Assembly: GCA_963712115.1 (NCBI GenBank) | Contig: CAVQGX010000064.1 | Location: 1 to 45,055 of the forward strand | Length of the DNA stretch: 45,055 nt | Source: an uncultured delta proteobacterium | Lineage (GTDB): Bacteria > Desulfobacterota > Syntrophobacteria > BM002 | Direction: 5' to 3' | Shown: positions 10,384 to 25,388 of the stretch, piece after piece | How the letters are laid out: the number at the start of each line of letters is the position of its first letter | How positions within the stretch are numbered: position 1 is the stretch's first letter | Made by a program: the position numbers and the translations under genes | The notes under the pieces: generated by a model | What the model was told of the DNA's origin: nothing | What the model saw: only the letters and a program-made list of their open reading frames with translations | Databases searched by the model: none

Positions 10384-10416
10384 AACGGGCTTGTGCCTTA
10401 TGGGCACAAGCCCGTT
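10384..10416. terminator. 14-bp perfect hairpin after the porin gene
   Basis: AACGGGCTTGTGCC-TTATG-GGCACAAGCCCGTT; U-tract is better on the - strand. Confidence 0.6.
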
Positions 10417-10429
10417 GGTGGATTTATCC

Positions 10430-11584
10430 ATGAAAAATAAAAGTTTACCTTATTTTCTCTTGAGTTTGCTTATTTTGTTTGTATCCCTGATCTTTGCTTG
10501 CGCCACCGATAAAGGTGCTGGGAAAGAAGAAGAAACCAGGCAAAAAACTGCGCAAGAGGCGAAAGCCCGCAAGGACATGGAAGCCCGGGTTCTTGAAAGT
10601 TCCTGGTATGAGAGTTCTGACTACCACCGCGGTAAAGGCGATAGCGGTGGGATTGACGTGGGCGAATGGCTAAGAACTAAGAAAGAAATTAAGGCCAAGC
10701 AGGAAGAGACCGAGAAGCGGCTGGCCAAACTGGAGAGTGAGGTCGAGGGACAGCAACCAGTTGCCAGTCAGGAGCAGACCTCCAGTGCACAGGCAAAAGC
10801 GGCCGGGACTGGGTTGGTCGGCTACGGGGCTGCAAATACCGACTCTCAGCAGGGTCTAAGGTTCAAAGTGGCCATGCTTGTCTTGCCTGAAGTGTACCTT
10901 TCAGCTCGAGATATAAAGGAAACGCTCTTTGGGGTCGCTGCTCGTCAGTTTGCCGGGAACCCGAGGTTCATTCTGGTTGATCCGGAGGAAGCCGAAGACA
11001 TTTTGCTCAAGCAAGGATTGGCAGTTATTCCAGAAAATAAGGCCGAGAATGCCAGGGCTCTGGGAATATATCCTGCTGCCCGGTTGGTTATTTTCCTGGA
11101 CAAGTTGGCACTGAGCAGCAAAGGCAGCGAAATGAATGGCCGCCTGAGTTACACTCTGGTTGATGGCTTTTCAGGCAGGAATATTGAGCAAGAAGAGGAG
11201 ATTGTCTCCCTTGGTCGAGATGGATCTGGAACCGGAAAGCTCTTGGCGAAGTTGGTGGAGGAGATGATCTCCGACCTCGAGAAGAGGGCAGACAGATATA
11301 TCTGGTCCTCCCGGGTTGCCATGGTTGAAGGGAAAAAGGTCTACCTCAGTTCCGGCAAGGCTTCCGGCTTGAAAAAAGGTGATATTTTCATGGTCCACGG
11401 ACCAGGGAGAGAAATCATTCATCCCACTGCCAAGGTTTCTATGGGATTTCAACAGGGCCCTTACAAGGGCAGGGTGGAAGTAGTGAGCCTTTTTGGCCAG
11501 GACGCAGCCGAGGCAACCGTGGTTGAAGGTTCAGGCAAAATCGATCCAAATGATCTGGTAACCCTGCCACCCGAGCAAAAGTAG
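10430..11584 (+). CDS. Lipoprotein with FlgT-like C-terminal domain
   Basis: Lipobox LIFAC, coiled-coil segment, C-terminal VYLSSGKASGLKKGDIFMV resembling FlgT_C. Confidence 0.6.
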   Translation: MKNKSLPYFLLSLLILFVSLIFACATDKGAGKEEETRQKTAQEAKARKDMEARVLESSWYESSDYHRGKGDSGGIDVGEWLRTKKEIKAKQEETEKRLAKLESEVEGQQPVASQEQTSSAQAKAAGTGLVGYGAANTDSQQGLRFKVAMLVLPEVYLSARDIKETLFGVAARQFAGNPRFILVDPEEAEDILLKQGLAVIPENKAENARALGIYPAARLVIFLDKLALSSKGSEMNGRLSYTLVDGFSGRNIEQEEEIVSLGRDGSGTGKLLAKLVEEMISDLEKRADRYIWSSRVAMVEGKKVYLSSGKASGLKKGDIFMVHGPGREIIHPTAKVSMGFQQGPYKGRVEVVSLFGQDAAEATVVEGSGKIDPNDLVTLPPEQK

Positions 11585-11826
11585 CCCAAGACCACCTGGA
11601 ATCCCCACCGACCCACACCCCCGCATTTCCCCACTGCAGAAATCATCTCTTGCTTAAAGATTTTCAAGGAACATACTCGTTTGAATATGATATTAAATTG
11701 TACAGTGATTGTATGTTTTGAAGGCTTTTAAGAGAGTGGTAATCCTCTATTCAGTTGATATATTCAGTCGCATTTGGTATTCATCAAAATTTAATATCGC
11801 AGAGAAAGTAGTTGCCCACTGACTAA

Positions 11827-12777
11827 ATGGAGCGTCTTGCTTCCATAGATGTTGGCTCAAACACCCTTCGGCTGCTCGTAGCAGAACCGGCCGCTTCCGC
11901 ACCCATCCGACCAATTCAAGTTGAACGACGTATCACCCGTTTGGGAGAGAGCTTCCTGCCGGACAAAATCCTGCAAACACCGGCTATGGACCGAAGTATC
12001 GCTGCACTGAAAGAATTCGTTGAGTTGATGGGCCTAAAGGGTGTCTCAGACTACTCGGCTGGTGCCACGGCCGTTGTGCGAGAGGCCAGCAATGGGGCAC
12101 ACTTTCTCGATCAAGTTCAGCGACAAACTGGCCTAAGTGTCCGCTTGCTTAGCGGCTCTGAAGAGGCGAGGCTGTCTCTCCTTGGTGTCGCTTCTGTGAT
12201 CTCGAAAAAAGAATCTTCCATGGTCATCTTTGACATCGGCGGGGGCAGTACCGAGTTGGTCTGGAAAGGTGAAGGGGCTAATAGCACTGTAGAAAGCAGC
12301 AGCCTTCCTCTGGGTGTGGTCCACTTGACTGAGACTTTTTTGTCGGCAGATCCTCCGGGTCATGAACCGTGCTTGCAGTTGCGGAGGCATGTCTCTAGCG
12401 TTCTGACCGAACTGTCCTTATATAAGGATTTTCATGATACTCTCTGGGTTGGTACGGCCGGAACCGTTACAACCCTGGCAAGCATGTGGTACGAATTGGT
12501 AGAATACGATCCGGAAAGAATAAATGGTACTGTTTTGGAAAGGACATGGCTTGCCGATCTCTGTGCAAGACTTGCCAGTATGAGGCTTGCTGAACGGAGA
12601 AAGCTCACCGGATTGGAGCCAGGTAGAGAGGATATTATCTTGGCTGGTGGATTAGTGACTCTGGAGATAATGGATACCTTTGGTTTTTCCCGGTTCACCG
12701 TCAGCGATGCCGGATTGCTCGAGGGACTGTTCCTTGATCTTTGTCGGACGTCATCGTACTCCCAAGGAAATGGCTAA
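11827..12777 (+). CDS. ppx: Ppx/GppA phosphatase family protein (short form)
   Basis: SIDVGSNTLRL, ATAVVREA, GSEEA, DIGGGSTE, GLLEG. Confidence 0.9.
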   Translation: MERLASIDVGSNTLRLLVAEPAASAPIRPIQVERRITRLGESFLPDKILQTPAMDRSIAALKEFVELMGLKGVSDYSAGATAVVREASNGAHFLDQVQRQTGLSVRLLSGSEEARLSLLGVASVISKKESSMVIFDIGGGSTELVWKGEGANSTVESSSLPLGVVHLTETFLSADPPGHEPCLQLRRHVSSVLTELSLYKDFHDTLWVGTAGTVTTLASMWYELVEYDPERINGTVLERTWLADLCARLASMRLAERRKLTGLEPGREDIILAGGLVTLEIMDTFGFSRFTVSDAGLLEGLFLDLCRTSSYSQGNG

Positions 12778-12852
12778 AAACCGGGGGTGGATATTTTTTT
12801 TGATGTGGGAGTTGTAGAAAGGGCTTTTTCCTGATAGCTTTAATAAATTTAG

Positions 12853-14355
<1,503 letters not shown>

Positions 14356-14365
14356 GGATCCACCT

Positions 14366-14411
14366 TTTAGATTTAAGATTTTAGATTTAAGATTGCAGAA
14401 TGAGGAATTTT
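14366..14411. repeat. 7-mer tandem repeat arm between guaB and guaA
   Basis: TTTAGATTTAAGATTTTAGATTTAAGATTGCAGAATGAGGAATTT. Confidence 0.65.
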
Positions 14412-14464
14412 AAAGCAAGACTTGTGATTCCAGTCAAAGATTTGGCTTTTGATAACGAGAGAAC

Positions 14465-16024
14465 ATGGATATTCATGACGACAAAATACTGATTCTTGAC
14501 TTCGGTTCTCAGACAACCCAACTCATAGCCAGGCGAGTACGTGAATCTCAGGTGTACTGCGAAATTCACCCGTTCAACCTGGGTCTGGATAAAATCAAGA
14601 GCTTCGGTGCTAAGGGCATAATCCTTTCAGGAGGCCCCGCCTGCGTTCTCGATGAAGGTTCACCCACTTGTGACCTAGAAGTACTGAAGCTAGGTATACC
14701 TGTTTTAGGTATCTGTTATGGGATGCAGCTCATGACCCACTTGTTGGGCGGTGAGGTTGAGCGCTCTGCCAAACGGGAGTATGGGAAAGCGCAACTCTTA
14801 ATAGATTCCGCCGAAGACCTGTTCTTTGGTTTGGACGGGTCAGGACAAAGTCAGGGCGAGCAGGTGTGGATGAGTCACGGAGACAAGATCAAGAAACCGC
14901 CGTCCGGTTTCATTGCCCTAGCCCACAGTGGAAACTCCCCTGTGGCCGCAATGCGCCACACCGATGCGGAGCTTTACGGGGTTCAGTTCCATCCGGAGGT
15001 TATCCATACTCCCAACGGCACCAAGATGCTGCAGAATTTTCTCTTTCGCTCTTGCGGCTGTAGACCTACTTGGACAATGAAGTCTTTCGTAGCCAGCACT
15101 GTGGAGAGCCTGCGGAAGACTGTTGGGTCTAAGAAAGTAATATGCGCTCTAAGCGGCGGCGTGGACAGTTCCGTGGTGGCAGTGTTGCTTCACAAAGCGG
15201 TGGGTCATCAGTCCACCTGCATCTTTGTGAATAATGGTTTGTTACGCCAAGGCGAGGCGGAAGAGGTTCAAAATATTTTTCGCCATTCCTTCGAGATCAA
15301 TTTAGATTACGTGGATGGAGCTGATGCCTTCTTGAGCCGGCTGAAAGGTGTAGTGGATCCGGAGGAGAAACGAAAAATTATCGGCAATCTTTTTATTGAG
15401 ATTTTTGAGGAGGAAGCCAACAAGATCCCGGGGGCTGAGTATCTCGCTCAAGGAACTCTCTACCCTGATGTTATAGAAAGTGTCTCCTTCAAGGGGCCCT
15501 CCGCCACTATCAAAACTCACCATAATGTGGGAGGTCTTCCTGAAGTGATGAATCTTGAACTCATCGAGCCACTAAGGGAACTATTCAAGGACGAGGTAAG
15601 AAAAGTAGGTGCAGAACTCGGGTTGCCAAGAAAGTTGATCCAAAGACACCCCTTCCCTGGACCAGGTCTGGCCATTCGCATTCTGGGTGAAGTGACGCCC
15701 GAGAAATTGGAAATTCTGCGCCAGGCTGATGCTATCATTATGGAGGAGATGGAGAACAGCGGTCTCCATGACCAGGTGTGGCAAGCATTCGGTGTGCTCT
15801 TACCGATCCGCACCGTGGGGGTCATGGGCGATGAACGCACCTACGATCAAGTGGTTGCCATTCGCATTGTGGAGAGCGTTGACGCAATGACAGCAGACTG
15901 GGCCAAAGTGGACTACCAGGTGTTGGGACAAATGTCAAACCGTATAATAAATGAAGTCAAGGGAGTTAATCGGGTGGTTTACGATATTTCCTCCAAACCG
16001 CCGAGTACAATTGAGTGGGAATAA
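14465..16024 (+). CDS. guaA: Glutamine-hydrolysing GMP synthase
   Basis: [33 protein letters not shown]. Confidence 0.98.
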
Positions 16025-16048
16025 TACCCGCCGCAATCCTTCCGACCC

Positions 16049-19000
16049 ATGCGTCAAGCAGATTTCGTTCATCTTCATCTTCATTCCGCCTACAGCCTTT
16101 TGCAGAGCACCATAAGGCTGCCTCAGCTAGTAAAAAAAGCACGTGAATACCGGCTGCCAGCCTTGGCCATAACAGACCATGGCAATCTATTTGGCTGCAT
16201 AGAATTTTATGATCTGGCTTACAGTAGTGGAATCAAACCTATTATTGGCTGCGAACTCGCGGTGGACTCCTTTGAGGGAGTCGATCCAGAGCGGCCTGGT
16301 AACTCTGAGCCGACCAATCACATAGTGCTCCTGGCGCGGAATAGAAGAGGTTACCAAAATCTTCTCCAGCTCATCACCAAAGCCCACTCTCAAGGCTGGC
16401 AGCAAGAACCACGAGTAAGTACAAATCATCTGTATGAGCATAAACGAGGGCTCACCATCCTAAGCGGGTGCCACAGGGGAGAGGTAGCCTCCCTGCTCTC
16501 TAAGGACGACCACCAGGGGGCAAAAGCACGGGCCGCCGAATATTTAGAAGTTTTTGGCAGGGAAGACTTTTTCATCGAGTTACAGCCGGTTCTCACTGAG
16601 CCAAACAGGATATTGAATGAACGACTTCTGGCTCTGGCCCGGCTGCTGGATGTTCAAGTAGTGGCCACGGCAAATAGCCATACTCTTGACCCAGGTGAAG
16701 TAGAACTAATTAATATCCTGAAGGCCATCAGGCTGGGAACCACTGTGGAGGAAATTCCCCCTTCGGTGGAGTACGGTTTTCTCTCTCCGGAAGAGATGAA
16801 AGTTGAGTTCAACCATCTGCCTGAAGCCATAGCTGCCACCCTAGTCATTGCTGAGCGCTGCAATCTCGATTTGGACTTAGGTAAGATTCACATACCGCAG
16901 TTTCCCCTGGAAAAAGGCCAGGAGGCAATGGCTGTATTGGGACAAAAGGCAAGGGAAGGGCTTCAACAGCAACTTTTGGCCAATCAACTTGAGGTCGATT
17001 CAGACTACAACCAAAGATTAGACATGGAACTAAAAAAAATTGAGCAGCTTGGTCTCGCGGATTACTTTCTCTTGGTAGCTGATTTCGTTCAGTTTGCCAG
17101 AACAAAGGGGGTTCCTGTAGGTCCAGGGAGTGGATCGGCAGGTTCTAGTCTCACTGCGCACGCTCTGGGGATCACTAAGATTGATCCGTTAAAGCATGGC
17201 CTTTTGTTTGAGCGTTTGATAAATCCACTGAGCCCAGAGTTTCCGGACATGGAGCTGGGTTTTGGCATGGAGATGCGAGAAGAAGTGCACCAATACCTCA
17301 GGTCCAAATATGGTCAGGACCGGGTAGCGCAAATCGTCTCACTGGTTACCATGCAACTGCGTACGGCCATTCGGGATCTGAGCAAGGCCTTGAATCTGGC
17401 GCAGGAAGATCTGGAGGCCACAGTTGAGTCCACAAAGTCGGCCAGAACAGGAGAAAGCGCATCCTCGAGGCAGCCATCTGAGCAAGGGATATCCGCGCGA
17501 GTCCCCAGAAGGGTAACGGAATTGGCAGCAGAGCTTGAGGGTTTGCCGCGACAGGTAAGCACCCATGCCACTGGTGTGATTATCGGCGATGGTCCATTGG
17601 TTGAAAATGTTCCACTTTACCGCGGTCCCAAGGATGAGTGGGTAAGCCAGTACAATGTGCGCGCCCTGAAGCGGGTCGGCATAGTAAAGATCGATCTGAT
17701 TGCGAGAAAAAGCCTTACAGTGATTCGTAAAGCAGTAGATCTCGTTGGCCAGGAGTATGATCTTTCCGCAGCCCTGGAACATATATCCTGGGATGATGAA
17801 GCTGCCTTCGAATTGCTATGTCTGGGGAGGGTGGGCGGCATTCCCTACTTGGAAACCCCAAGAGCACGCGATCTGCTACTCAAATGGCAACCCAGGGGGT
17901 GGCAGGATCTACTTGTACTTTTGGCCTTAATTCGACCAGCACCGTTAGAAAGTGGATTGACCGAAAGCCTCCTCAGCACTCGTCGGCAGGAAGGATCTCA
18001 GAGGACATCTCCCCCGTCTGATGAAGGAAGGCTTTTGCCTGGGACTAAATTTCTTTTTTTTGATGTGGATCTTATCGAACTGATTGCTGAAAGCACCGGT
18101 TGGTCTTTGGAAAAGGCAGATGAACTTTGTCGCCTGCTTATGAAAGCTGACGAGGAAGAACTGGAAAACATACGTTTGGAGTTCATCAAAGGAGCCGAGA
18201 ATAGAGGTTGTGCCCGTGAAGAGGCGGAGATAACCTGGTCTAAAGTGGAACGCTCGGCAGGCGTGGTTGCCAATAAGAACCAAACAGTTGCCCAGGCATT
18301 TACGGTGCTGCAAGCTGTCTTTTCCAAAGCTCGCTTTCCGCAGCACTACATAGCTGCCCTATTGAGCAGCGAACTACACCAGCATGACCTTCTGACGGCG
18401 CATATCGAGTCTTGTCGCCAAGAGGGTCTTACTTTGCTGCCTCCAGATGTAAATGAAAGTGAGGTGGAATTCCGCGTAGAAACTGAGGGTGTCCGTGTTG
18501 GACTGGCGGCAATCAGGCATGTGAGTAAGGCAACAGCTGGTTCAATTGTCCAGGCACGGCGTGAGAGAGGACCATTTAATTCTCTTTTTGAACTCTGCAA
18601 TAGCTTAGAACGGGAGGATCTGGACAAGAGAGCTTTAGGTGCAATGATTAAGGCGGGAGCTATGGACAGTTTTGGCGGTGGTAGGCAAAGTCTGTACGGG
18701 ATGCTTCCCGAATTATTGGAACAGGCTCGTCGAGGTCAGATGGCACTTTTTGACGGCCCTGACCTAGAGACTCATTCAGACCGAAGCTTTACTACTCCAT
18801 CTGACTGGGATTACTCCACCAAACTGGCTAAAGAAAAAGAGGCCTTAGGCTTTTACCTGAGCGGCCATCCGCTGGCTGAATTTCGTTCCTTCCTGGAAAA
18901 AGTCGCTCCGGGTGGGGCGGCACGGCTAGGTGATCTTCCCGGAGATTCTCAGGGGTTCCTAGGGGGTGTAATTGAGGAGATCAGAGCAATTAGGAGCCGC

Positions 19001-19471
19001 AAAGGCGAGCCCCTACACTTTTTACGAATAGAAGATTACACAGGCTCTATGGAAGTGATTGTCTTTGCAGATGTGTATGCAAGATTCGAGAGATACTTGT
19101 TCAAGGGAGCCCTGGCGCTGGTGCGCGGCAGGATAGCAAGAGAGCCCGATCAGGTAAGGCTGGTGGCTGAAGATGTTATGTTTTTGGAGGAGGCAGCCCA
19201 GAAACTAGCCACCTCTGTTAGATTGCATCTCTCCGTGGAAGGTTTCTCAAGGGAGTTGCTTAGCGATCTACGGCAGTTGTTCAAATCCCAGCCAGGGTCA
19301 TGTCCAGTTTACCTCCACTTTAATATTGGCCAGCATACAGAGGTTATTCAGAGACTACCGCCTCCATTTAATGTTTACCCTGCTAGAGATTTGATTAGGG
19401 AAATAACCAGACGATTTGGCGAGAGCTCCCTAGAGATTATTTACGGCGAGGAAGGCGAGACAAGAAGCTAA
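16049..19471 (+). CDS. dnaE: DNA polymerase III alpha homolog, predicted catalytically inactive
   Basis: Full PHP-palm-thumb-fingers-HhH-OB-CTD layout (HLHLHSAYS, AITDHGN, LLPPDVNES, LGFYLSGHPL, EDYTGS), but PDxDxD reads PDMELG. Confidence 0.9.
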   Translation: MRQADFVHLHLHSAYSLLQSTIRLPQLVKKAREYRLPALAITDHGNLFGCIEFYDLAYSSGIKPIIGCELAVDSFEGVDPERPGNSEPTNHIVLLARNRRGYQNLLQLITKAHSQGWQQEPRVSTNHLYEHKRGLTILSGCHRGEVASLLSKDDHQGAKARAAEYLEVFGREDFFIELQPVLTEPNRILNERLLALARLLDVQVVATANSHTLDPGEVELINILKAIRLGTTVEEIPPSVEYGFLSPEEMKVEFNHLPEAIAATLVIAERCNLDLDLGKIHIPQFPLEKGQEAMAVLGQKAREGLQQQLLANQLEVDSDYNQRLDMELKKIEQLGLADYFLLVADFVQFARTKGVPVGPGSGSAGSSLTAHALGITKIDPLKHGLLFERLINPLSPEFPDMELGFGMEMREEVHQYLRSKYGQDRVAQIVSLVTMQLRTAIRDLSKALNLAQEDLEATVESTKSARTGESASSRQPSEQGISARVPRRVTELAAELEGLPRQVSTHATGVIIGDGPLVENVPLYRGPKDEWVSQYNVRALKRVGIVKIDLIARKSLTVIRKAVDLVGQEYDLSAALEHISWDDEAAFELLCLGRVGGIPYLETPRARDLLLKWQPRGWQDLLVLLALIRPAPLESGLTESLLSTRRQEGSQRTSPPSDEGRLLPGTKFLFFDVDLIELIAESTGWSLEKADELCRLLMKADEEELENIRLEFIKGAENRGCAREEAEITWSKVERSAGVVANKNQTVAQAFTVLQAVFSKARFPQHYIAALLSSELHQHDLLTAHIESCRQEGLTLLPPDVNESEVEFRVETEGVRVGLAAIRHVSKATAGSIVQARRERGPFNSLFELCNSLEREDLDKRALGAMIKAGAMDSFGGGRQSLYGMLPELLEQARRGQMALFDGPDLETHSDRSFTTPSDWDYSTKLAKEKEALGFYLSGHPLAEFRSFLEKVAPGGAARLGDLPGDSQGFLGGVIEEIRAIRSRKGEPLHFLRIEDYTGSMEVIVFADVYARFERYLFKGALALVRGRIAREPDQVRLVAEDVMFLEEAAQKLATSVRLHLSVEGFSRELLSDLRQLFKSQPGSCPVYLHFNIGQHTEVIQRLPPPFNVYPARDLIREITRRFGESSLEIIYGEEGETRS

Positions 19472-19576
19472 CTCGGAGAAATGGGGATGCGAGACGTTGA
19501 GCAGGCAGTCTGCAGCTAGCAGCTTTTCGTATTAACTCTTCTGTGATGCCTCCATACAAGTGAGGAGTTGACACAT

Positions 19577-20305
19577 ATGAGCGAATACCGTGAGCGGAGA
19601 TATCGCCATCAAATCCACCACAAGCGATTGGTTCCCTTTAAGGTGGCTGTACAAGAAACAGATCTGATGATTCTGGCTGAGTCCGACCTGACTGAGCTAA
19701 CTGAGGAGATTATTTACAAGGTTCGTGGGCCTCTGGAGGGATACATTGTTAGTCACCCCGAATTTCTCAGCACTTTGACCCCCATGCCTTACGATAAACT
19801 CGCACCTCCGGTAGTAAAGGAAATGTTAGCTGCGGCACAGGTTTGCGGTACTGGTCCCATGGCTGCCGTAGCCGGAGCTGTGGCGGAGCAGGTTGGCTTG
19901 GCCCTTCTGCGGGAGAGTGGTGAGGTGGTGGTGGAGAACGGCGGTGATTGTTTCGTCAAGGTGGATTCACCCTTGCAAATATCTATCTTTGCTGGGCGGT
20001 CAAAGTTGAGCAATACGCTGGCCCTGAAGATCTATCCGGATAAGACGCCCTTGGGCGTGTGTACGTCTTCAGGCACTGTTGGCCACTCCCTGAGCTTTGG
20101 CGTTGCTGATGCGGTGACTGTAATATCAGCCTCTGCGGCGCTAGCCGATGCTGCTGCAACTATGACTTGCAACCAGGTGAAAAGCGAGAGCAATATCCGT
20201 CAGGCCATAGCCTTTGCCCAACAGATTGAGGGAGTCTTGGGAGTGGTAGTCATCGTGGGAGAGCAGATAGGTGCATGGGGTGATGTTGAGCTGGTGTCGA
20301 TTTAA
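19577..20305 (+). CDS. UPF0280 family (ApbE-like) protein
   Basis: GPMAAVAGA, VENGGD, CTSSGTVGHSLSFG, ADAAAT; ATG at 19577 after GAGGAG. Confidence 0.85.
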   Translation: MSEYRERRYRHQIHHKRLVPFKVAVQETDLMILAESDLTELTEEIIYKVRGPLEGYIVSHPEFLSTLTPMPYDKLAPPVVKEMLAAAQVCGTGPMAAVAGAVAEQVGLALLRESGEVVVENGGDCFVKVDSPLQISIFAGRSKLSNTLALKIYPDKTPLGVCTSSGTVGHSLSFGVADAVTVISASAALADAAATMTCNQVKSESNIRQAIAFAQQIEGVLGVVVIVGEQIGAWGDVELVSI

Positions 20306-20415
20306 GATTTGAGATTTAAGATTTCACTCAGCAAACGACAGCCCAGACTGCACAAGGAGAGGGTTAAGGGATTCTTAATTCTTTTCTAATTCCTCAACCT
20401 GCAATCTGCAATCTA
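20299..20415. repeat. Inverted 7-mer tandem repeat pair
   Basis: GATTTAAGATTTGAGATTTAAGATTT ... CAACCTGCAATCTGCAATCTAC. Confidence 0.6.
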
Positions 20416-20423
20416 CACAGTAC

Positions 20424-20451
20424 TTGTTTTTTTGGCAGATGTTGGTATACT
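20424..20451 (+). promoter_or_regulatory. Putative sigma70 promoter for HIT-lapA-lapB
   Basis: TTGTTT, 16 bp, TATACT preceded by TGn. Confidence 0.45.
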
Positions 20452-20522
20452 CGCAAAAAATTTTCCTCCGGCAGACAAGAGGGGCTAGTTCGCCCTTTGT
20501 TGTGAGGGAAAGGTGATAGACC

Positions 20523-21023
20523 ATGCAGAATCTATGGGCGCCGTGGCGAATGGACTACATTTTGGGCGACCGGCCGAAAGGCTGCATTTTTTGTCCAGAG
20601 GGCAACGGCAAAAGTGATGAAGAACGGCTCCTGCTGTATAGAGGAGACCGTTCCATGGTTGTAATGAACCGTTTCCCTTACAATAATGGCCATCTTCTCG
20701 TGGCTCCTTGGAAACACACATCTTCATTGGATGGCCTCAAAGACGAGGAACTGTTTGACTTAGTTCGAACGGTCCGGTGGTCGGTGGCCGTACTCCGCGA
20801 AACCATGAGTCCAGACGCGTTTAATGTGGGACTCAACCTCGGTACGGTGGCAGGAGCAGGCGTGGAAGCCCATGTCCATTTCCACATTGTGCCAAGGTGG
20901 AATGGTGACACGAGCTTCATGACGGTTTTGGCTGAGGTGCGCGTTGTTCCAGAGCATCTCCAACAGACCTATGAAAGGCTACTCCCCTATTTCGAAAAGG
21001 AGAAATTGAATGAAACCAGTTAA
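20523..21023 (+). CDS. HIT-family protein (Ap4A phosphorylase/FHIT-like)
   Basis: LWAPWRMDYI, CIFC, NRFPYNNGH, triad HVHFH. Confidence 0.9.
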   Translation: MQNLWAPWRMDYILGDRPKGCIFCPEGNGKSDEERLLLYRGDRSMVVMNRFPYNNGHLLVAPWKHTSSLDGLKDEELFDLVRTVRWSVAVLRETMSPDAFNVGLNLGTVAGAGVEAHVHFHIVPRWNGDTSFMTVLAEVRVVPEHLQQTYERLLPYFEKEKLNETS

Positions 21024-21387
21024 GTGGGTGGTTTTGTTGCTCTTGATAGTCTTACTGATTGTTTTCCTCATTCAGAACATCGACGCGATTCTTGCCCCAA
21101 CCACCTTCGAGTTCAAACTGTTTGGACTTCTGCACGTCAGCTCAAAGCCCATCCCCCTTTATGGTCTGATTCTGGGTTCTATTTTTGGGGGTGGCTTAAT
21201 GACTGCCATTTACCTTGGCTTGGGCAACTTCCGTTTACGCAGTTCCCTCCGATCCCTTCAAAAACAGAAGAACAGCCTCCAAGAAGAACTCAAATCCCTG
21301 CGCAACCTGCCGATCACTGAGGGGGAGGTGGTGGCCAGTCAGCCTGCAGAGACTCCTGGCACTAATTATGCGGAGGAAGCCGAATAG
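21010..21387 (+). CDS. lapA: LapA family membrane protein
   Basis: TM-FLIQN-TM-coiled coil; directly upstream of lapB. Confidence 0.75.
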   Translation: MKPVKWVVLLLLIVLLIVFLIQNIDAILAPTTFEFKLFGLLHVSSKPIPLYGLILGSIFGGGLMTAIYLGLGNFRLRSSLRSLQKQKNSLQEELKSLRNLPITEGEVVASQPAETPGTNYAEEAE

Positions 21388-21415
21388 GCAAAAACCGGGT
21401 AAACTGGCGTGATGG

Positions 21416-22627
21416 ATGGATGCGAACACCCTACATATTGGGGGAATCGAATTTAATATTTTCGCCCTTTTGGGTATTATAGCCAGCTTGGGCCTTGTCA
21501 TAGGCTATTTCCTCGGTAGACGCAAACAATTCACTGATTCTTCGCTAAAGCAGTCAAGCCCACCAGAAGACTACTCAGTCTTTCTTAAAGGCATCCAGTA
21601 CATTCTTGCCAATGAGACCGACCAGGCCATCGAGGCTTTTAGCAGGGCAGTACAGATAAACTCTGAGACCATTGAGACCTACGTAACCTTGGGGAATCTC
21701 TTCCGGGTAAAGGGAGAAATAGACAGAGCTATCCGCATAAGGCAATCCATTCTTTTGAGGGAAAAGGTAGATCAGGAAACGAAACTACAGGCCCTCTTCG
21801 ATATGGGAATGGATTACAAGCAAGGTGGCTTTTTGCAGCGAGCGATCTCGACTTTCGAAGAGGTGATTCGCCGCGCTCCGAAAAGGTTGGACGCTTACAA
21901 AGAACTGGAAGGTCTCTACGAGGCCACACATGATTGGCAACGGGCTTATGAACTGCAAAAAGAGATTCGCAAATTGAGCAATACGAATAATCAGCACATT
22001 ATGGCTCATTTGAAAACAGAGCAAGCCAAGGTTGAAATGGAGAAGGGTAATCTGGATAGTGCTAATGCCAATCTGAAAAAGGCATTATCTCTGGATTCCA
22101 CATGTGTGGACGCCAGCTTGCAGTTAGGGTCTCTCTACTGGTTAAAGAACAAAAAGAAGAAAGCACTGGCCATTTGGAAAAAACTAGTTAAAAACAACCC
22201 CAGGTGGGCTCACCTTATTCTCATTCGTCTAGAGGAGCAAGACGGGATGGTGGGTGATGAGGCTAAGGTGTTGGAATTTATTGAAAAAATTGCAGAAGAG
22301 AATTTGGATGCTTTAGCTCGGTTGGCTCTGGCCCGCTGCTTTATGAAACGTGACAAGAGAGAGCAGGGCCTCGCATCTCTGAGGCGAGCCTTGGAGATAA
22401 AACCTGATCTGGGAGAAGCGCGCAAGATATTGGGTGAGGTGTTGTTGGAAAAGGGCGATGAACAGGGTGCACTATCTGAGTACCGTAGTCTTCTTGGCCA
22501 CCTCGGGCCGGTTACCAAGAGCTATCGCTGCCAACAGTGCGGGCTGGAAAGTGACAACATTACCTGGAAGTGCCCCGGTTGCCATAATTGGGACACGGTT
22601 CAACCCAGGAAGATCGCCAGTGAATGA
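21416..22627 (+). CDS. lapB: LPS assembly protein B (TPR + rubredoxin-like)
   Basis: N-terminal TM, LGNLFRVKGEIDRAIRIRQ, C-terminal CQQCG...WKCPGCHNW. Confidence 0.88.
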   Translation: MDANTLHIGGIEFNIFALLGIIASLGLVIGYFLGRRKQFTDSSLKQSSPPEDYSVFLKGIQYILANETDQAIEAFSRAVQINSETIETYVTLGNLFRVKGEIDRAIRIRQSILLREKVDQETKLQALFDMGMDYKQGGFLQRAISTFEEVIRRAPKRLDAYKELEGLYEATHDWQRAYELQKEIRKLSNTNNQHIMAHLKTEQAKVEMEKGNLDSANANLKKALSLDSTCVDASLQLGSLYWLKNKKKKALAIWKKLVKNNPRWAHLILIRLEEQDGMVGDEAKVLEFIEKIAEENLDALARLALARCFMKRDKREQGLASLRRALEIKPDLGEARKILGEVLLEKGDEQGALSEYRSLLGHLGPVTKSYRCQQCGLESDNITWKCPGCHNWDTVQPRKIASE

Positions 22628-22725
22628 TATTTAGGGTTTTTAGATTGCGGATTTCGGATCGATTTGGATTTTAAGGGGCGAATTAAAGTAATAAGCCCTT
22701 TAAATATAATTTGAGGATGAGTTAG

Positions 22726-22753
22726 AGCCACGTCCTGTGGACGTGGATTTTTT
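22726..22753 (+). terminator. Hairpin plus T-tract before mutS, related to the hairpin at 7891-7917
   Basis: CCACGTCC-TGT-GGACGTGG followed by ATTTTTT. Confidence 0.45.
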
Positions 22754-22772
22754 CTATTGAGGTAGCTCCAAC

Positions 22773-25388
22773 ATGAGTAAAGTCACCCCCATGATCCAAC
22801 AATACCTGGAAATCAAAGGGAACTATAAAGACGCCATACTCTTCTACCGCATGGGGGATTTCTACGAAATGTTTTTTGAGGATGCCGTGGTTGCCTCTCG
22901 AGAACTTGAGATTACCCTTACCTCTCGGGACAAACAAGCGGAAGATCCAATCCCTATGTGTGGCGTACCTCACCATGCAGTGGACGCTTACATTGCCAAG
23001 CTTCTGGAGAGGGATTACAAAGTGGCCTTGTGTGAACAGGTTGAAGATCCTCGTCAGGCAAAGGGATTAGTCCGCCGTGAGGTGGTTCGAGTGATCACAC
23101 CGGGAACTCTTTTGGACAGTCTGGATGGCAAGAGTCCCAATTATCTCGCCGCTGTTCATCTTTCCTCTGGAGACAAATGCGGCTTGGCATTCCTGGATCT
23201 TTCGACTGCTGACTTTCGTATGACCCAAACTGAGAGCATCACATGGCTTCTCGCAGAATTGGGAAGGGTGGAACCTCGGGAGCTCCTGGTGGCTGAGGAC
23301 ACTGAGTTCGATTCAACCTGGTGGCGTGCTCAGGTTGGAGAATGTGTTGTGCAAGTATTAGAGCCGGAGTCTTTTGAATTCTCTAGAGCACATCAGAGGC
23401 TTCTTGATCAGTTTCAGGTGCACTCCCTGGAGGGTTTTGGCATCAGGAATCTCCCATTGGCCGTAAGCGCTGCCGGAGCAATTCTCGACTATGTGAAGCG
23501 AACCCAACTTCAGGCCGCCAAGCATATTCAAAGAGTTGTTCCCTACCACCGCAGCGATTATATGATCTTAGACGAGGTTACTGCCCGCCATTTGGAACTT
23601 TTCCGTTCCTGGTACGATGGCAGCCGCAGAGGCACCCTCCTGGAACTTTTGGACAGAACGGTCACCTCCATGGGAGGTCGGTTGCTGAGGGCTTGGATGC
23701 ATTATCCTCTGATCCAAGTAGAGGCCATTGAAGCGCGCCAGGATGCTATTAGCTGCTTTCGTGAGCATGAAGCTATTCGTGCCCAGGTGCGCCAAGAACT
23801 GGAGAGAGTTTACGATTTGGAGCGTCTTAACAGTAGGGTCGCTATGGGGTCAGCCACCCCGCGGGATCTTGCCGCCTTGAGGCGGTCTTTTCACTCTCTA
23901 CCTCGAATTAAGCATCTACTGAGCTATCTAGAAGATCGGACCCTGTCTGAACTGACAAATAGATTGGACCCCTTGGAAGATCTCGCCGAGTTGCTCCAGG
24001 AAGCCCTCATTGATAACCCTCCGCCGACTTTGGCAGAAGGCGGCTTAATCCGCCCGGGCTACAACGAGGAACTGGATCGGCTACTCAGTCTTAGTCGAGA
24101 CGCCAAGAAGTGGATTGCTCAACTAGAAGCAGAGGAGCGACAGAAAACATCCATTGGCACGCTAAAGGTGGGCTATAATAAGGTCTTTGGCTACTACCTG
24201 GAAGTTTCAAAGGCCAACCAGGGTTCAGTGCCGGACCGATACATACGCAAGCAAACTCTGGTCAACGCAGAGCGTTATATTACGGAAGAGCTAAAGGAGT
24301 ACGAGATCCAAGTACTAAATGCGGACGAAAAGAGAATTCGCCTTGAAGAAGAACTCTTTCTGGCACTCCGTGCTAAAGTTGCCAGCCATGGCAAGCGCAT
24401 TCAATCAACAGCCTCTGTGATAGCAGAACTAGACGTATTTGCAGCTCTGGCCGAGGTCGCCAATCAGAGAAACTACTGCCGGCCTCAAATAGAAGATGGA
24501 GCCGAAATCAATATCAAAGAGGGGCGCCATCCCATGGTGGAGGCAGCCCAACCCCAAGGCAGTTTTGTTCCAAATGATATGGCCCTGGATGATGTTAGCC
24601 AACAGATTATAATCATCACGGGACCCAATATGGCAGGGAAGTCCACCGTTCTTAGACAGGTGGCGCTTATTGTTCTCATTGCACAGATGGGAGCACCCGT
24701 GCCTGCAAGCTCTGCTAGGATAGGAGTTGTAGACCGCATTTTTACCAGGGTAGGTGCCACCGACGAATTGACCCGGGGAAGGAGCACCTTTATGGTTGAG
24801 ATGCAAGAGACTGCCCATATCCTTCATCAGGCTTCGGACAGGAGTTTGGTGATTCTAGATGAAATTGGCCGAGGAACGAGTACCTTTGATGGCTTGAGCA
24901 TCGCCTGGGCAGTGGCCGAATTTCTCCATAACTGGCAGGGAAAGGGAGTCAAAACCCTTTTCGCTACCCATTATCATGAACTAACAGATCTTGCTGCCAC
25001 TGGGCCGCGGGTCAAGAATATGAACGTGGCGGTTAAGGAGTGGGGGGAGAAGATTATTTTTCTTCGAAAGCTGGTGGAAGGCGGCACTAATCGCAGTTAT
25101 GGCATTCAAGTGGCACGGCTTGCAGGATTACCGCCGGAGGTTGTGGAAAGAGCCAAACAAGTGCTTCGACACCTGGAGGAAGAGACTACAGACGTGGAAG
25201 GTTTGCCCCGCCTCGCCCGCTCTGCCTCCGGTAACCAGGACGAACCGCTTCAGCTCTCTCTTTTCCGACAGTCTGACCAGAAGCTTCGCCGCCGTCTTCA
25301 AAAGTTGAACATAGAGCAACTAACTCCTATTGAAGCTCTCAACGAGCTTGCCAGGCTGCGGGAAATAGTAGGTGAAGAATCATCTTAG
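22773..25388 (+). CDS. mutS: DNA mismatch repair protein MutS1
   Basis: TPMIQQY, GDFYEMF, GPNMAGKST, STFMVEM, DEIGRGTST, C-terminal QLSLF. Confidence 0.98.
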   Translation: MSKVTPMIQQYLEIKGNYKDAILFYRMGDFYEMFFEDAVVASRELEITLTSRDKQAEDPIPMCGVPHHAVDAYIAKLLERDYKVALCEQVEDPRQAKGLVRREVVRVITPGTLLDSLDGKSPNYLAAVHLSSGDKCGLAFLDLSTADFRMTQTESITWLLAELGRVEPRELLVAEDTEFDSTWWRAQVGECVVQVLEPESFEFSRAHQRLLDQFQVHSLEGFGIRNLPLAVSAAGAILDYVKRTQLQAAKHIQRVVPYHRSDYMILDEVTARHLELFRSWYDGSRRGTLLELLDRTVTSMGGRLLRAWMHYPLIQVEAIEARQDAISCFREHEAIRAQVRQELERVYDLERLNSRVAMGSATPRDLAALRRSFHSLPRIKHLLSYLEDRTLSELTNRLDPLEDLAELLQEALIDNPPPTLAEGGLIRPGYNEELDRLLSLSRDAKKWIAQLEAEERQKTSIGTLKVGYNKVFGYYLEVSKANQGSVPDRYIRKQTLVNAERYITEELKEYEIQVLNADEKRIRLEEELFLALRAKVASHGKRIQSTASVIAELDVFAALAEVANQRNYCRPQIEDGAEINIKEGRHPMVEAAQPQGSFVPNDMALDDVSQQIIIITGPNMAGKSTVLRQVALIVLIAQMGAPVPASSARIGVVDRIFTRVGATDELTRGRSTFMVEMQETAHILHQASDRSLVILDEIGRGTSTFDGLSIAWAVAEFLHNWQGKGVKTLFATHYHELTDLAATGPRVKNMNVAVKEWGEKIIFLRKLVEGGTNRSYGIQVARLAGLPPEVVERAKQVLRHLEEETTDVEGLPRLARSASGNQDEPLQLSLFRQSDQKLRRRLQKLNIEQLTPIEALNELARLREIVGEESS

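Follow-up and report, generated by a model that had tools for sequence, protein, structure and literature searches.

Comparison with described polymerases

Surveys of the C-family DNA polymerases recognise four groups: PolC, DnaE1, DnaE2 and DnaE3 (PMC3919608; PMC12926913). Dead adaptor polymerases are known in the Y family (ImuB) and suspected in PolX, and none was found for the replicative C family: full-text literature searches, with the sequence lists of the surveys lying outside the comparison, returned no account of any DnaE or other C-family homolog that has lost its nucleotide pocket. A candidate for such a protein is encoded in the DNA analysed here, a stretch of 45,055 nucleotides (nt) from an uncultured delta proteobacterium (GenBank assembly GCA_963712115.1, contig CAVQGX010000064.1), the whole of which is called the window. 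It is a divergent paralog of DnaE, DNA polymerase III's alpha subunit:

16049..19471 (stop codon included), + strand: divergent DnaE paralog gene (P0001), an uninterrupted open reading frame (ORF) of 1140 amino acids (aa)

The reading favoured here, at a probability of roughly 0.6, is that this paralog is a non-catalytic, clamp-bound pseudo-polymerase derived from DnaE1. It is read as a pseudo-polymerase because its changes in the nucleotide pocket and the proofreading site are of a kind that proved lethal to the enzyme in laboratory mutants. As such it represents a natural experiment: an alpha subunit altered where laboratory mutants lose polymerase or proofreading activity, and retained by selection while a whole bacterial family diversified.

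With DnaE1 the paralog shares the six-part architecture including the C-terminal domain, a clamp-binding motif in the same place, the equivalents of K553, D555 and D401 (E. coli numbering), and the glycine and serine of the GS motif. It differs from DnaE1 in lacking R362, R396, D405, R709, K715, Y754, F756 and H760, in having Glu for D403, in keeping seven of the nine ligands of the PHP site, and in being an additional copy on a separate long-stem clade instead of the sole copy. DnaE2 (ImuC) is likewise an accessory, non-essential-looking extra DnaE beside DnaE1, and it also has a non-canonical PHP site. However, the paralog has a C-terminal domain, which no DnaE2 has according to PMC3919608, it lies in a guaB-guaA string and not in a LexA cassette, and it has lost residues of the deoxynucleoside triphosphate (dNTP) pocket that DnaE2 keeps. 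The likeness to ImuB is one of logic and not of sequence, since the two belong to the C and Y families and their folds are unrelated: both are polymerase homologs kept by selection, apparently unable to polymerise, with a clamp motif and with active relatives alongside. ImuB is encoded in a LexA-controlled damage cassette, whereas the paralog is in a housekeeping string after guaA. The PolX proteins with an inactivated polymerase site (PMC12926913) are also polymerase and PHP proteins retained after decay of the polymerase site, but they belong to another polymerase family and their PHP site is intact, whereas that of the paralog has two ligand substitutions. The 'DnaEX' sequences (Timinskas et al. 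2013, PMC3919608) are diverged extra DnaE proteins beside DnaE1 that were left out of the tree of their authors, and one proteobacterium is reported with DnaE1, DnaE2 and DnaEX together (PMC3919608). That survey required an intact active-site region and removed fragments without it, and no group that has lost the dNTP pocket is described in it; DnaEX and the paralog family were compared by description only, and DnaEX entries may or may not be members of the latter.

Polymerase active site and nucleotide pocket

The residues of the paralog were counted in one alignment of 54 full-length members of its protein family (hereafter the paralog family) and 56 canonical DnaE1 sequences. The regions and motifs concerned are:

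16937..17701, + strand: palm/thumb region (Pfam DNA_pol3_alpha, residues 297-551)
17120..17137, + strand: GS motif GPGSGS (358-363), with S361 for E. coli R362; G362 and S363 kept
17243..17263, + strand: PDMELGF (399-405), with D400 for D401 (kept), E402 for D403 and G404 for D405
17687..17695, + strand: K547-I-D549, equivalent to K553 and D555, both kept (K and D each in 54/54 members)
17714..18205, + strand: fingers (Pfam 556-719; analysed as 556-790), the most remodelled part of the paralog
18059..18070, + strand: FDVD (671-674) replacing YQEQ, a new motif conserved across the family
18125..18148, + strand: LCRLLMKA (693-700) replacing LRRAMGKK, with C694 for R709 and A700 for K715; R710 and K714 kept
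18263..18283, + strand: VVANKNQ (739-745) replacing YGFNKSH, with Y754 changed to V, F756 to A, S759 to N and H760 to Q

In the ternary complex of E. coli Pol III, 13 residues lie less than 4 A from the incoming dGTP: R362, G363, S364, D401, D403, Y754, F756, N757, H760, R390, R709, K714 and K715; R396, K553 and R710 are slightly further away, and R639, P640, G641 and G753 are at the templating base (bioRxiv 10.64898/2026.06.29.735100). Six of the 13 contacts are replaced in the paralog (R362, R709, K715, Y754, F756 and H760) and D403 is Glu. Among the three more distant contacts only R396 is replaced, by S395, at a position that is variable in the family and lies in the motif FERFLNPER of canonical DnaE, here FERLINPLS. 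At the templating base G641 is A631 in the paralog and V or A in the family. The residues kept are G363, S364, R390 (R389), D401, K553, D555, R639, P640, R710 (R695), K714 (K699) and, mostly, N757.

The replacements extend through the family. The R362 position is S in 53 members and Arg in none, and is R in all 56 canonical sequences. No member has Tyr at the Y754 position (V in 32, L in 19; V739 in the paralog), Phe at the F756 position (A in 41; A741) or His at the H760 position (745: Q in 23, K in 22, R in four, T in three). The R709 position (694) shows C in 36 members, Y in 10 and R in seven, and the K715 position (700) is variable, with A in 26, G in 12, Y in seven and D in three. The new FDVD motif reads, position by position, F in 54, D in 54, V in 49 and D in 51 members, and FDED in the most distant one (P0124). 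About 60 database clusters, 45-95% identical to the paralog over residues 290-790, carry these substitutions too, and they are absent from 56/56 canonical DnaE1; thus they are not due to chance. All 56 canonical sequences keep every pocket residue mapped, and so, with few exceptions, does the error-prone DnaE2 of the genome, whose kept residues include the equivalents of R362, Y754, F756, H760, R709, K715, R396 and D405. Positions with at least 95% conservation among canonical DnaE1 sequences were taken as canonical-invariant; of these, the family retains 15 of 53 in the fingers, 30 of 34 in the PHP domain, 52 of 83 in the palm/thumb, 7 of 11 in the helix-hairpin-helix domain, 5 of 7 in the linker with the clamp motif, and 4 of 4 in the OB fold. 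Judged by these residues, the loss in the paralog is centred on the dNTP pocket and focused in the fingers. Since several of the replaced positions (745, 700 and 694) are variable, a relaxed pocket fits better than a new specificity.

Several positions of this site have been mutated in E. coli alpha. R362A and K553A abolish the activity of E. coli alpha and R390A costs it 27-fold (as cited in bioRxiv 10.64898/2026.06.29.735100). H760 is the invariant steric gate, and H760Q failed to complement a dnaE(ts) strain, while S759N raised ribonucleotide incorporation 8.4-fold (PMC8485763); the paralog carries N744-Q745 at these two positions.

A first-pass annotation, made from the window alone, had described the paralog as a DnaE homolog with a dismantled polymerase active site. 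Six of its seven motif readings hold in HMMER alignments to E. coli and Taq alpha: GPGSGS (S361), FERLINPLS, FDVD, LCRLLMKA, VVANKNQ (Q745) and the clamp motif QMALF (897-901). The seventh, in which D401 and D403 were matched to E402 and G404, is shifted by one position: in the alignment, E. coli M-P-D401-F-D403-V-D405-F stands against F-P-D400-M-E402-L-G404-F, and thus D401 is kept as D400, D403 is E402, and D405 is G404. The statement that only the third Asp survives is accordingly mistaken. D401, D403 and D555 are reported as absolutely conserved in the C family (PMC3919608), and the triad of the paralog reads D400/E402/D549, with two of the three carboxylates kept and the remaining Asp conservatively changed to Glu; 34 of the 54 members have D at position 402 (D/D/D), 19 have E and one has A. 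The annotation had itself named retained aspartates in close relatives as evidence against its claim, and by this measure that part of the claim fails. D405, which is described as absolutely conserved in DnaE1-3 (PMC3919608) and is G in 49/54 members, is not among the three catalytic residues. The earlier observation is therefore largely right and its headline residue claim wrong, and its interpretation finds partial support, though from other evidence: what speaks for inactivity is the replacement of the equivalents of R362, Y754, F756, H760, R709, K715, R396 and D405, and of two PHP ligands.

Domain architecture, class assignment and clamp motif

All five Pfam domains of the paralog exceed their gathering cut-offs: PHP (8-179), DNA_pol3_alpha (297-551), finger (556-719), HHH_6 (793-881) and OB (974-1044). 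They give the order PHP, Pol3 (palm/thumb), fingers, tandem helix-hairpin-helix and OB, in agreement with the complete set of Pol III alpha domains reported for this uninterrupted ORF in the first pass. The parts downstream of the fingers are:

18425..18691, + strand: tandem helix-hairpin-helix domain (793-881; Pfam HHH_6)
18737..18751, + strand: internal beta-clamp-binding motif QMALF (897-901), at the same alignment position as in canonical DnaE1 (E. coli QLDLF/QADMF-type motifs)
18968..19180, + strand: OB fold (974-1044; Pfam)
19199..19468, + strand: C-terminal domain (about 1051-1140), a homolog of the DnaE1 tau-binding domain, aligned to the end of E. coli alpha

HMMER matches the paralog to three solved alpha subunits, those of Taq (E 1.6e-163) and E. 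coli (8.2e-158) and a third entry, 7pu7 (4.4e-153), and the alignment with E. coli alpha runs end to end (residues 3-1130 on chain residues 3-1157). The superfamily model TIGR00594 is passed, with 783.9 bits against a cut-off of 434.35. The best NCBIfam matches are DnaE1 equivalogs, yet the paralog remains below their cut-offs (NF004226, 864.7 against 1002 bits; NF005298, 845.2 against 1260), and the DnaE2 model NF004225 gives 514.8 bits against a cut-off of 939; every curated NCBIfam equivalog cut-off is missed. By these profile scores the paralog is a member of the DnaE-type C family at superfamily level. It falls outside DnaE1 in its equivalog score, its pocket residues, D405, its PHP motif, and in not being the replicase of its genome.

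At the sequence level the paralog does show two other DnaE1 features, the Qxx[LM]F clamp motif and the C-terminal domain of the tau-binding type. The clamp motif reads GQ[MLI][AG]LF in 54/54 members, more uniform than in canonical DnaE1, and its invariance suggests that the paralog binds the clamp. The source genome contains one dnaN, beside dnaA, and one dnaX. The complex with DnaX proposed in the first pass was modelled with residues 380-553 of the DnaX of the genome and residues 905-1140 of the paralog. Its score was 0.55, whereas none of three controls exceeded 0.00, which amounts to weak support: of 80 solved complexes 58 attain the mark applied, as do 2 of 110 mismatched pairs, and scores of up to 0.60 that pass it come from only seven of the 80 solved complexes and from both passing mismatches. 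At least 90% of contacts are shared between runs, with a partner pLDDT (predicted local distance difference test) of at least 78. Binding of tau by the paralog is thus tentatively suggested by this weak prediction.

A probable non-catalytic role at the clamp and its alternatives

The paralog keeps the fold of alpha with the palm/thumb, helix-hairpin-helix and OB parts, the clamp motif and the C-terminal domain of the tau-binding type, and has lost the residues by which the incoming dNTP is held and selected, together with two of the nine PHP zinc ligands. As a pseudo-polymerase it would most likely bind primer-template DNA and the sliding clamp, perhaps also the tau subunit of the clamp loader, without synthesis or proofreading. 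At clamps or primer ends it would then serve as placeholder, competitor or adaptor beside the normal DnaE1. The pattern by which pseudoenzymes are recognised, motif loss in a fold kept under selection, is found here as the pocket loss, its focus in the fingers and a ratio of non-synonymous to synonymous substitution rates (dN/dS) of 0.15-0.25. Mutants of E. coli and M. tuberculosis suggest by analogy that both polymerase and exonuclease activities are lost. A clamp or tau scaffold role analogous to that of ImuB, already proposed in the first-pass annotation, would fit this picture. If the paralog is non-catalytic, selection can act on a function of the alpha scaffold itself, with clamp occupancy, tau capping and primer-end binding as candidates, and it would offer a handle on polymerase traffic at clamps.

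Several points weigh against a non-catalytic protein. The family conserves the core of the Pol-beta-like nucleotidyltransferase site (D400 in 52/54 members, D or E402 in 53/54, D549 and K547 each in 54/54, G362 in 53/54), although metal ligands would be dispensable in a protein with a purely structural role; S363 is kept in 41/54, R389 in 43/54, R695 in 53/54 and K or R699 in 52/54. The new invariant acidic F-D-V-D in the fingers suggests a function gained rather than merely lost. ImuB is described in print as catalytically dead, whereas the paralog mostly keeps its metal-binding carboxylates, and its inactivity is argued from mutant enzymes of other species. The geometry of the pocket could not be checked structurally, because the AlphaFold2 model of the paralog (40-row family alignment) is poor, with a mean pLDDT of 60.6, a predicted template modelling score (pTM) of 0.33 and values below 50 at residues 424-667 and 746-825; within it the OB fold reaches a pLDDT of about 85-90 and the C-terminal domain is folded confidently. 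The tau prediction is weak and may reflect memory, since a comparable complex of E. coli is solved. Two copies of the gene are damaged. That of genome G026 (about 50% identity; L114, G026:C202 2175-5437), on a 5.5-kb contig, is split into overlapping ORFs of 162 and 991 aa by an apparent frameshift near residues 72-114, for which real decay and assembly error were not told apart, and that of genome G008 (L128, G008:C53) has a TAA at codon 33 followed by an intact ORF of 1103 aa. Among the points in favour of the pseudo-polymerase, four metatranscriptome libraries from two studies contain contigs 97-98% identical to the window along the paralog (in library X15, 16070-16437, 16505-17121, 17441-17910 and 18197-18539), with a word depth over the paralog similar to that over guaB and guaA, but such contigs give no strand, ends or level and cannot exclude carried-over DNA; bins without depth in libraries X16-X18 were left uninterpreted.

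The conserved core is what would be expected if the paralog is still an enzyme, a C-family nucleotidyltransferase that rides on the clamp and has a rebuilt, roomier pocket, without Tyr roof, His gate and Arg362, for another substrate or mode: ribonucleotides, bulky or damaged nucleotides, or untemplated addition. The conservation of the metal ligands, of the primer-phosphate lysine (K547) and of the GS motif in the family favours this explanation, as do the retained triphosphate contacts R389, R695 and K/R699, the fixation of the FD(V)D motif and of S361, and the purifying selection on palm and fingers. The effect of S759N on ribonucleotide incorporation in E. coli (PMC8485763) points the same way, since the paralog has N744 and no gate histidine. 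Nevertheless, in E. coli the R362A and H760Q enzymes are dead or fail to complement, variation within the family affects five of the nine replaced pocket positions, which is unexpected for a tuned pocket, just 15 of the 53 invariant finger positions survive, and the error-prone DnaE2 of the same genome keeps each of the eight pocket and active-site residues named above. On balance a retooled enzyme is the main rival, unlikely if far from negligible. A site re-purposed to such an extent that it defines a fifth functional class of C-family enzymes, a clamp-tethered nucleotidyltransferase with a non-dNTP substrate or without a template, is a shade less likely again. This class would be confined to one uncultured sediment lineage, whose records are assigned to Syntrophobacterales or Deltaproteobacteria.

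PHP site

The PHP domain carries two further substitutions, which went unnoticed in the first pass:

16070..16585, + strand: PHP domain (residues 8-179; Pfam), with ligands H8, H10, Q19, H44, E69, H91, C141, N209 and H211

Two of the nine metal ligands are amides, Q19 and N209, each in place of Asp, and the other seven are kept (HHQHEHCNH); N209 and H211 fall just outside the Pfam envelope. Q19 is present in 40 of the 44 family rows with a residue at that position (H in the other four) and N209 in 54/54, while canonical DnaE1 has D or E at both. By their order in the motif, Q19 and N209 match D23 and D226 of M. tuberculosis DnaE1, whose D23N and D226N mutants show no exonuclease activity at all (PMC5636811). 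In PMC12926913 an active PHP site is described as HHDHEH[C/H]DH and any deviation as 'inactive', and by this nine-residue rule the site of the paralog counts as inactive. In the PHP domain, the Taq entries 2hpi (D, D) and 3e0d (N, N) differ at these same two columns and nowhere else; evidently the Taq ternary-complex construct carries engineered PHP substitutions at both sites.

Nine of the 60 family clusters (P0031, P0032, P0034, P0038, P0040, P0044, P0045, P0046 and P0048) start at codons 24-36 and are thus without the HxH ligands; only the G008 copy was checked at the DNA level. Ranked by identity, short and full-length forms are intermixed, and N-terminal shortening may have occurred more than once.

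These data bear on an explanation in which the polymerase part is a mere scaffold and the PHP domain works as a clamp-tethered nuclease or phosphoesterase, as has been proposed for PolX (PMC12926913). Besides that precedent, it can draw on the closeness of the PHP domain to canonical DnaE1 (the 30 of 34 invariant positions given above), on the lowest dN/dS of the protein (0.14-0.22), and on the seven kept ligands, the replacements Q19 and N209 being themselves conserved. A working hydrolase is improbable all the same, because the replaced ligands are those whose Asn mutants abolish the exonuclease of M. tuberculosis DnaE1 (PMC5636811), the site is inactive by the strict rule of PMC12926913, and the nine short clusters lack HxH, with the G008 copy stopped at codon 33.

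Selection

The 11 orthologs fetched as DNA are all open in frame. With the Nei-Gojobori method, on pairs with unsaturated dS (0.2-0.9), dN/dS is 0.15-0.25 for the paralog and 0.06-0.12 for DnaE1 of the same genome pairs, and the dN ratio is 1.8-3.3; the paralog is constrained, though 2-3 times less than the replicase. Divided by domain, as had been suggested for the guaA-linked orthologs, all values fall within 0.10-0.46 and none is near 1: the fingers are highest (0.15-0.35), the PHP domain lowest (0.14-0.22), and the C-terminal domain shows 0.11-0.33. An intact ORF of 1132 aa is kept even in an ortholog at 43% identity. Of the first-pass proposal of a selected, non-polymerising homolog, the selection is borne out by the open orthologs and the low dN/dS, and the basis in lost aspartates is replaced by one in pocket residues.

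The same measurements make it very improbable that the paralog is a decaying duplicate, a pseudogene in progress without function. Its non-synonymous evolution is 2-3 times faster than that of DnaE1, one copy is frameshifted (G026) and one has an early stop (G008), and the gene is not preceded by a Shine-Dalgarno-like sequence, all of which decay would explain. A dN/dS of 0.15-0.25 over 3.4 kb with no domain near 1, 11 open orthologs out of 11 together with the 1132-aa ORF, the persistence of the gene at the same locus in 20 of the 21 other genomes of the taxonomic family, and the invariance of the clamp and FDVD motifs are contrary to it.

dnaE copies, distribution and origin

The source genome (G000; 70 contigs, 94.4% complete, 5.99% contamination) contains three genes with PF07733. 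An active dnaE elsewhere in the genome, predicted in the first pass, is indeed present: contig C22 carries a canonical DnaE1 (P0002) of 1175 aa with every canonical motif and the PHP site HHDHEHCDH, to which the paralog is 37% identical, and the DnaE2 cassette is on contig C30. The DnaE2-like gene there encodes 989 aa and is preceded by lexA and a Y-family (IMS) gene. This cassette (L005:3040-8904), in the order lexA (Peptidase_S24 and LexA_DNA_bind), IMS and DnaE2-like, is a conventional SOS-type mutasome module apart from the paralog.

Canonical (about 334-338 bits) and divergent (about 235-245 bits) copies occur together in 5/5 relatives checked. In a search of 40 relatives, the paralog was found in 17/17 genomes of the same genus (44-85% identity) and in three of four genomes of other genera of the taxonomic family (f1), the one without it being 72% complete; this makes 20 of the 21 other genomes of f1. 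In 19 genomes of five sister families it was not found, the copies there being canonical and at most 38% identical. Among the 20 other f1 genomes with the paralog, 19 have a canonical DnaE1, and the exception is 61% complete. That the paralog might be the sole dnaE, which the first pass had named as an outcome to be checked, is answered by two relatives (G001 and G002) in which it shares one closed chromosome with the canonical gene.

The idea that the canonical dnaE is a bin contaminant and the paralog a sole divergent replicase, for which the 70-contig assembly, its 5.99% contamination and the position of the canonical gene on another contig could be cited, is refuted by the single-contig chromosomes of G001 and G002 that hold both genes, and also runs against the canonical copy in 19 of the 20 other paralog-bearing genomes and the clade that the canonical genes of f1 form with those of the sister families (100 in the SH-like approximate likelihood ratio test, SH-aLRT).

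In a collection of 5.8 billion proteins the paralog family comprises about 60 clusters (90% identity), and below 45% the identity of matches drops to at most 38%. A HMMER scan of 1.84 billion representatives gave 47,958 matches, and among the best 150 only three belong to the family (60%, 52% and 41% identity); the other 148, the alignment set of the query counted, are at most 37% identical and canonical at the key positions. No other group of 'dead' DnaE was seen among these best 150 of 47,958, as 148/148 non-family sequences keep R362, D401, D403, D555 and H760, six of them with FQEQ. The genome matches bear titles of Deltaproteobacteria, Syntrophobacterales, Syntrophobacteria, Desulfobacteraceae or Desulfobacterota metagenome-assembled genomes. 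Source databases title the proteins of the family 'DNA polymerase III subunit alpha', and hence counting dnaE by annotation overstates the polymerase content of these genomes.

The paralog lies between guaA and the gene of a conserved hypothetical protein (NCBIfam NF003323) in every member with enough flank, including copies at 60% and 43% identity, while the NF003323 gene comes immediately after guaA in 5/5 outgroup genomes, which represent three sister families. From this adjacency in the outgroups it follows that the paralog entered the housekeeping string once, in the ancestor of the taxonomic family. Two IQ-TREE 'quick' trees (38 and 42 rows) recover the paralog family as monophyletic, with 100 SH-aLRT and a stem about 1.1-1.2 substitutions per site long, with the DnaE1 of the class as a separate clade (100) and the DnaE2 of the genome far from the paralog. 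Neither tree fixes the attachment of the paralog among the DnaE1 lineages, and duplication within the lineage and transfer are not told apart. The G+C content of the paralog (0.504) is similar to that of its neighbours and gives no clue to its origin.

Two observations on other copies were made. In G016 (a single contig, 62% complete) the paralog is present as two overlapping partial copies 0.5 Mb apart (G016:C1:1013362-1015698 and 1533742-1535823), spanning residues 356-1134 and 1-693, and the canonical DnaE1 is likewise divided in two, which suggests an error in scaffolding or assembly. Some canonical DnaE1 representatives of 1460-1637 aa carry large insertions within the most conserved motifs. 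In P0254 the insertion lies between NK and SH of YGFNKSH and has an intein-like ending (...VHN before SH), and other rows show a gap within GPGRGS, before its final S. These insertions in the active-site motifs are probably inteins.

Gene neighbourhood

The genes around the paralog are on one strand, in the order ppx, guaB, guaA, DnaE paralog, conserved hypothetical (NF003323), HIT, lapA, lapB and mutS. The immediate flanks are:

14465..16024, + strand: guaA, the upstream flank of the insertion site
16025..16048, + strand: spacer between guaA and the paralog, 24 nt, pyrimidine-rich, without a Shine-Dalgarno-like purine run or a promoter-like or terminator-like site
19568..20305, + strand: conserved hypothetical gene of 245 aa (NCBIfam NF003323), the downstream flank of the insertion site

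Since guaA ends at 16024, the gap of 24 bp given in the first pass is correct. The C-rich spacer (e.g. tccccgcc...gaccc) is alike in the window and in 13/13 ortholog loci printed (L006-L012, L014-L016, L018, L028 and L112). GAGG-, AGGAG- or AAGG-like runs precede six neighbouring genes and dnaE1, unlike the paralog, whose spacer may mean low or guaA-coupled translation, or a way of keeping the protein scarce.

The 245-aa product has no Pfam family at E values up to 0.001 and is titled 'hypothetical protein' in NCBIfam. Its gene adjoins guaA throughout the class, and ppx-guaB-guaA-NF003323-HIT is a conserved string. It was considered as a partner specific to the paralog and rejected, because it adjoins guaA in 5/5 outgroup genomes without the paralog. 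Further upstream, an ORF of 397 aa (10391-11584, + strand) matches no Pfam family at E values up to 0.001, and its NCBIfam matches do not rise above chance level.

Scans of 11500-23000 gave promoter-like and terminator-like sites at the level of shuffled sequence (10 against 10.2 and 16 against 10.8, respectively), and therefore the operon boundary cannot be read from them. The best terminator-like hairpin of the region is at 22728-22746 (+ strand), after lapB and before mutS, with eight pairs, six of them G-C, and a T-run; it may close a long guaB-to-lapB transcription unit.

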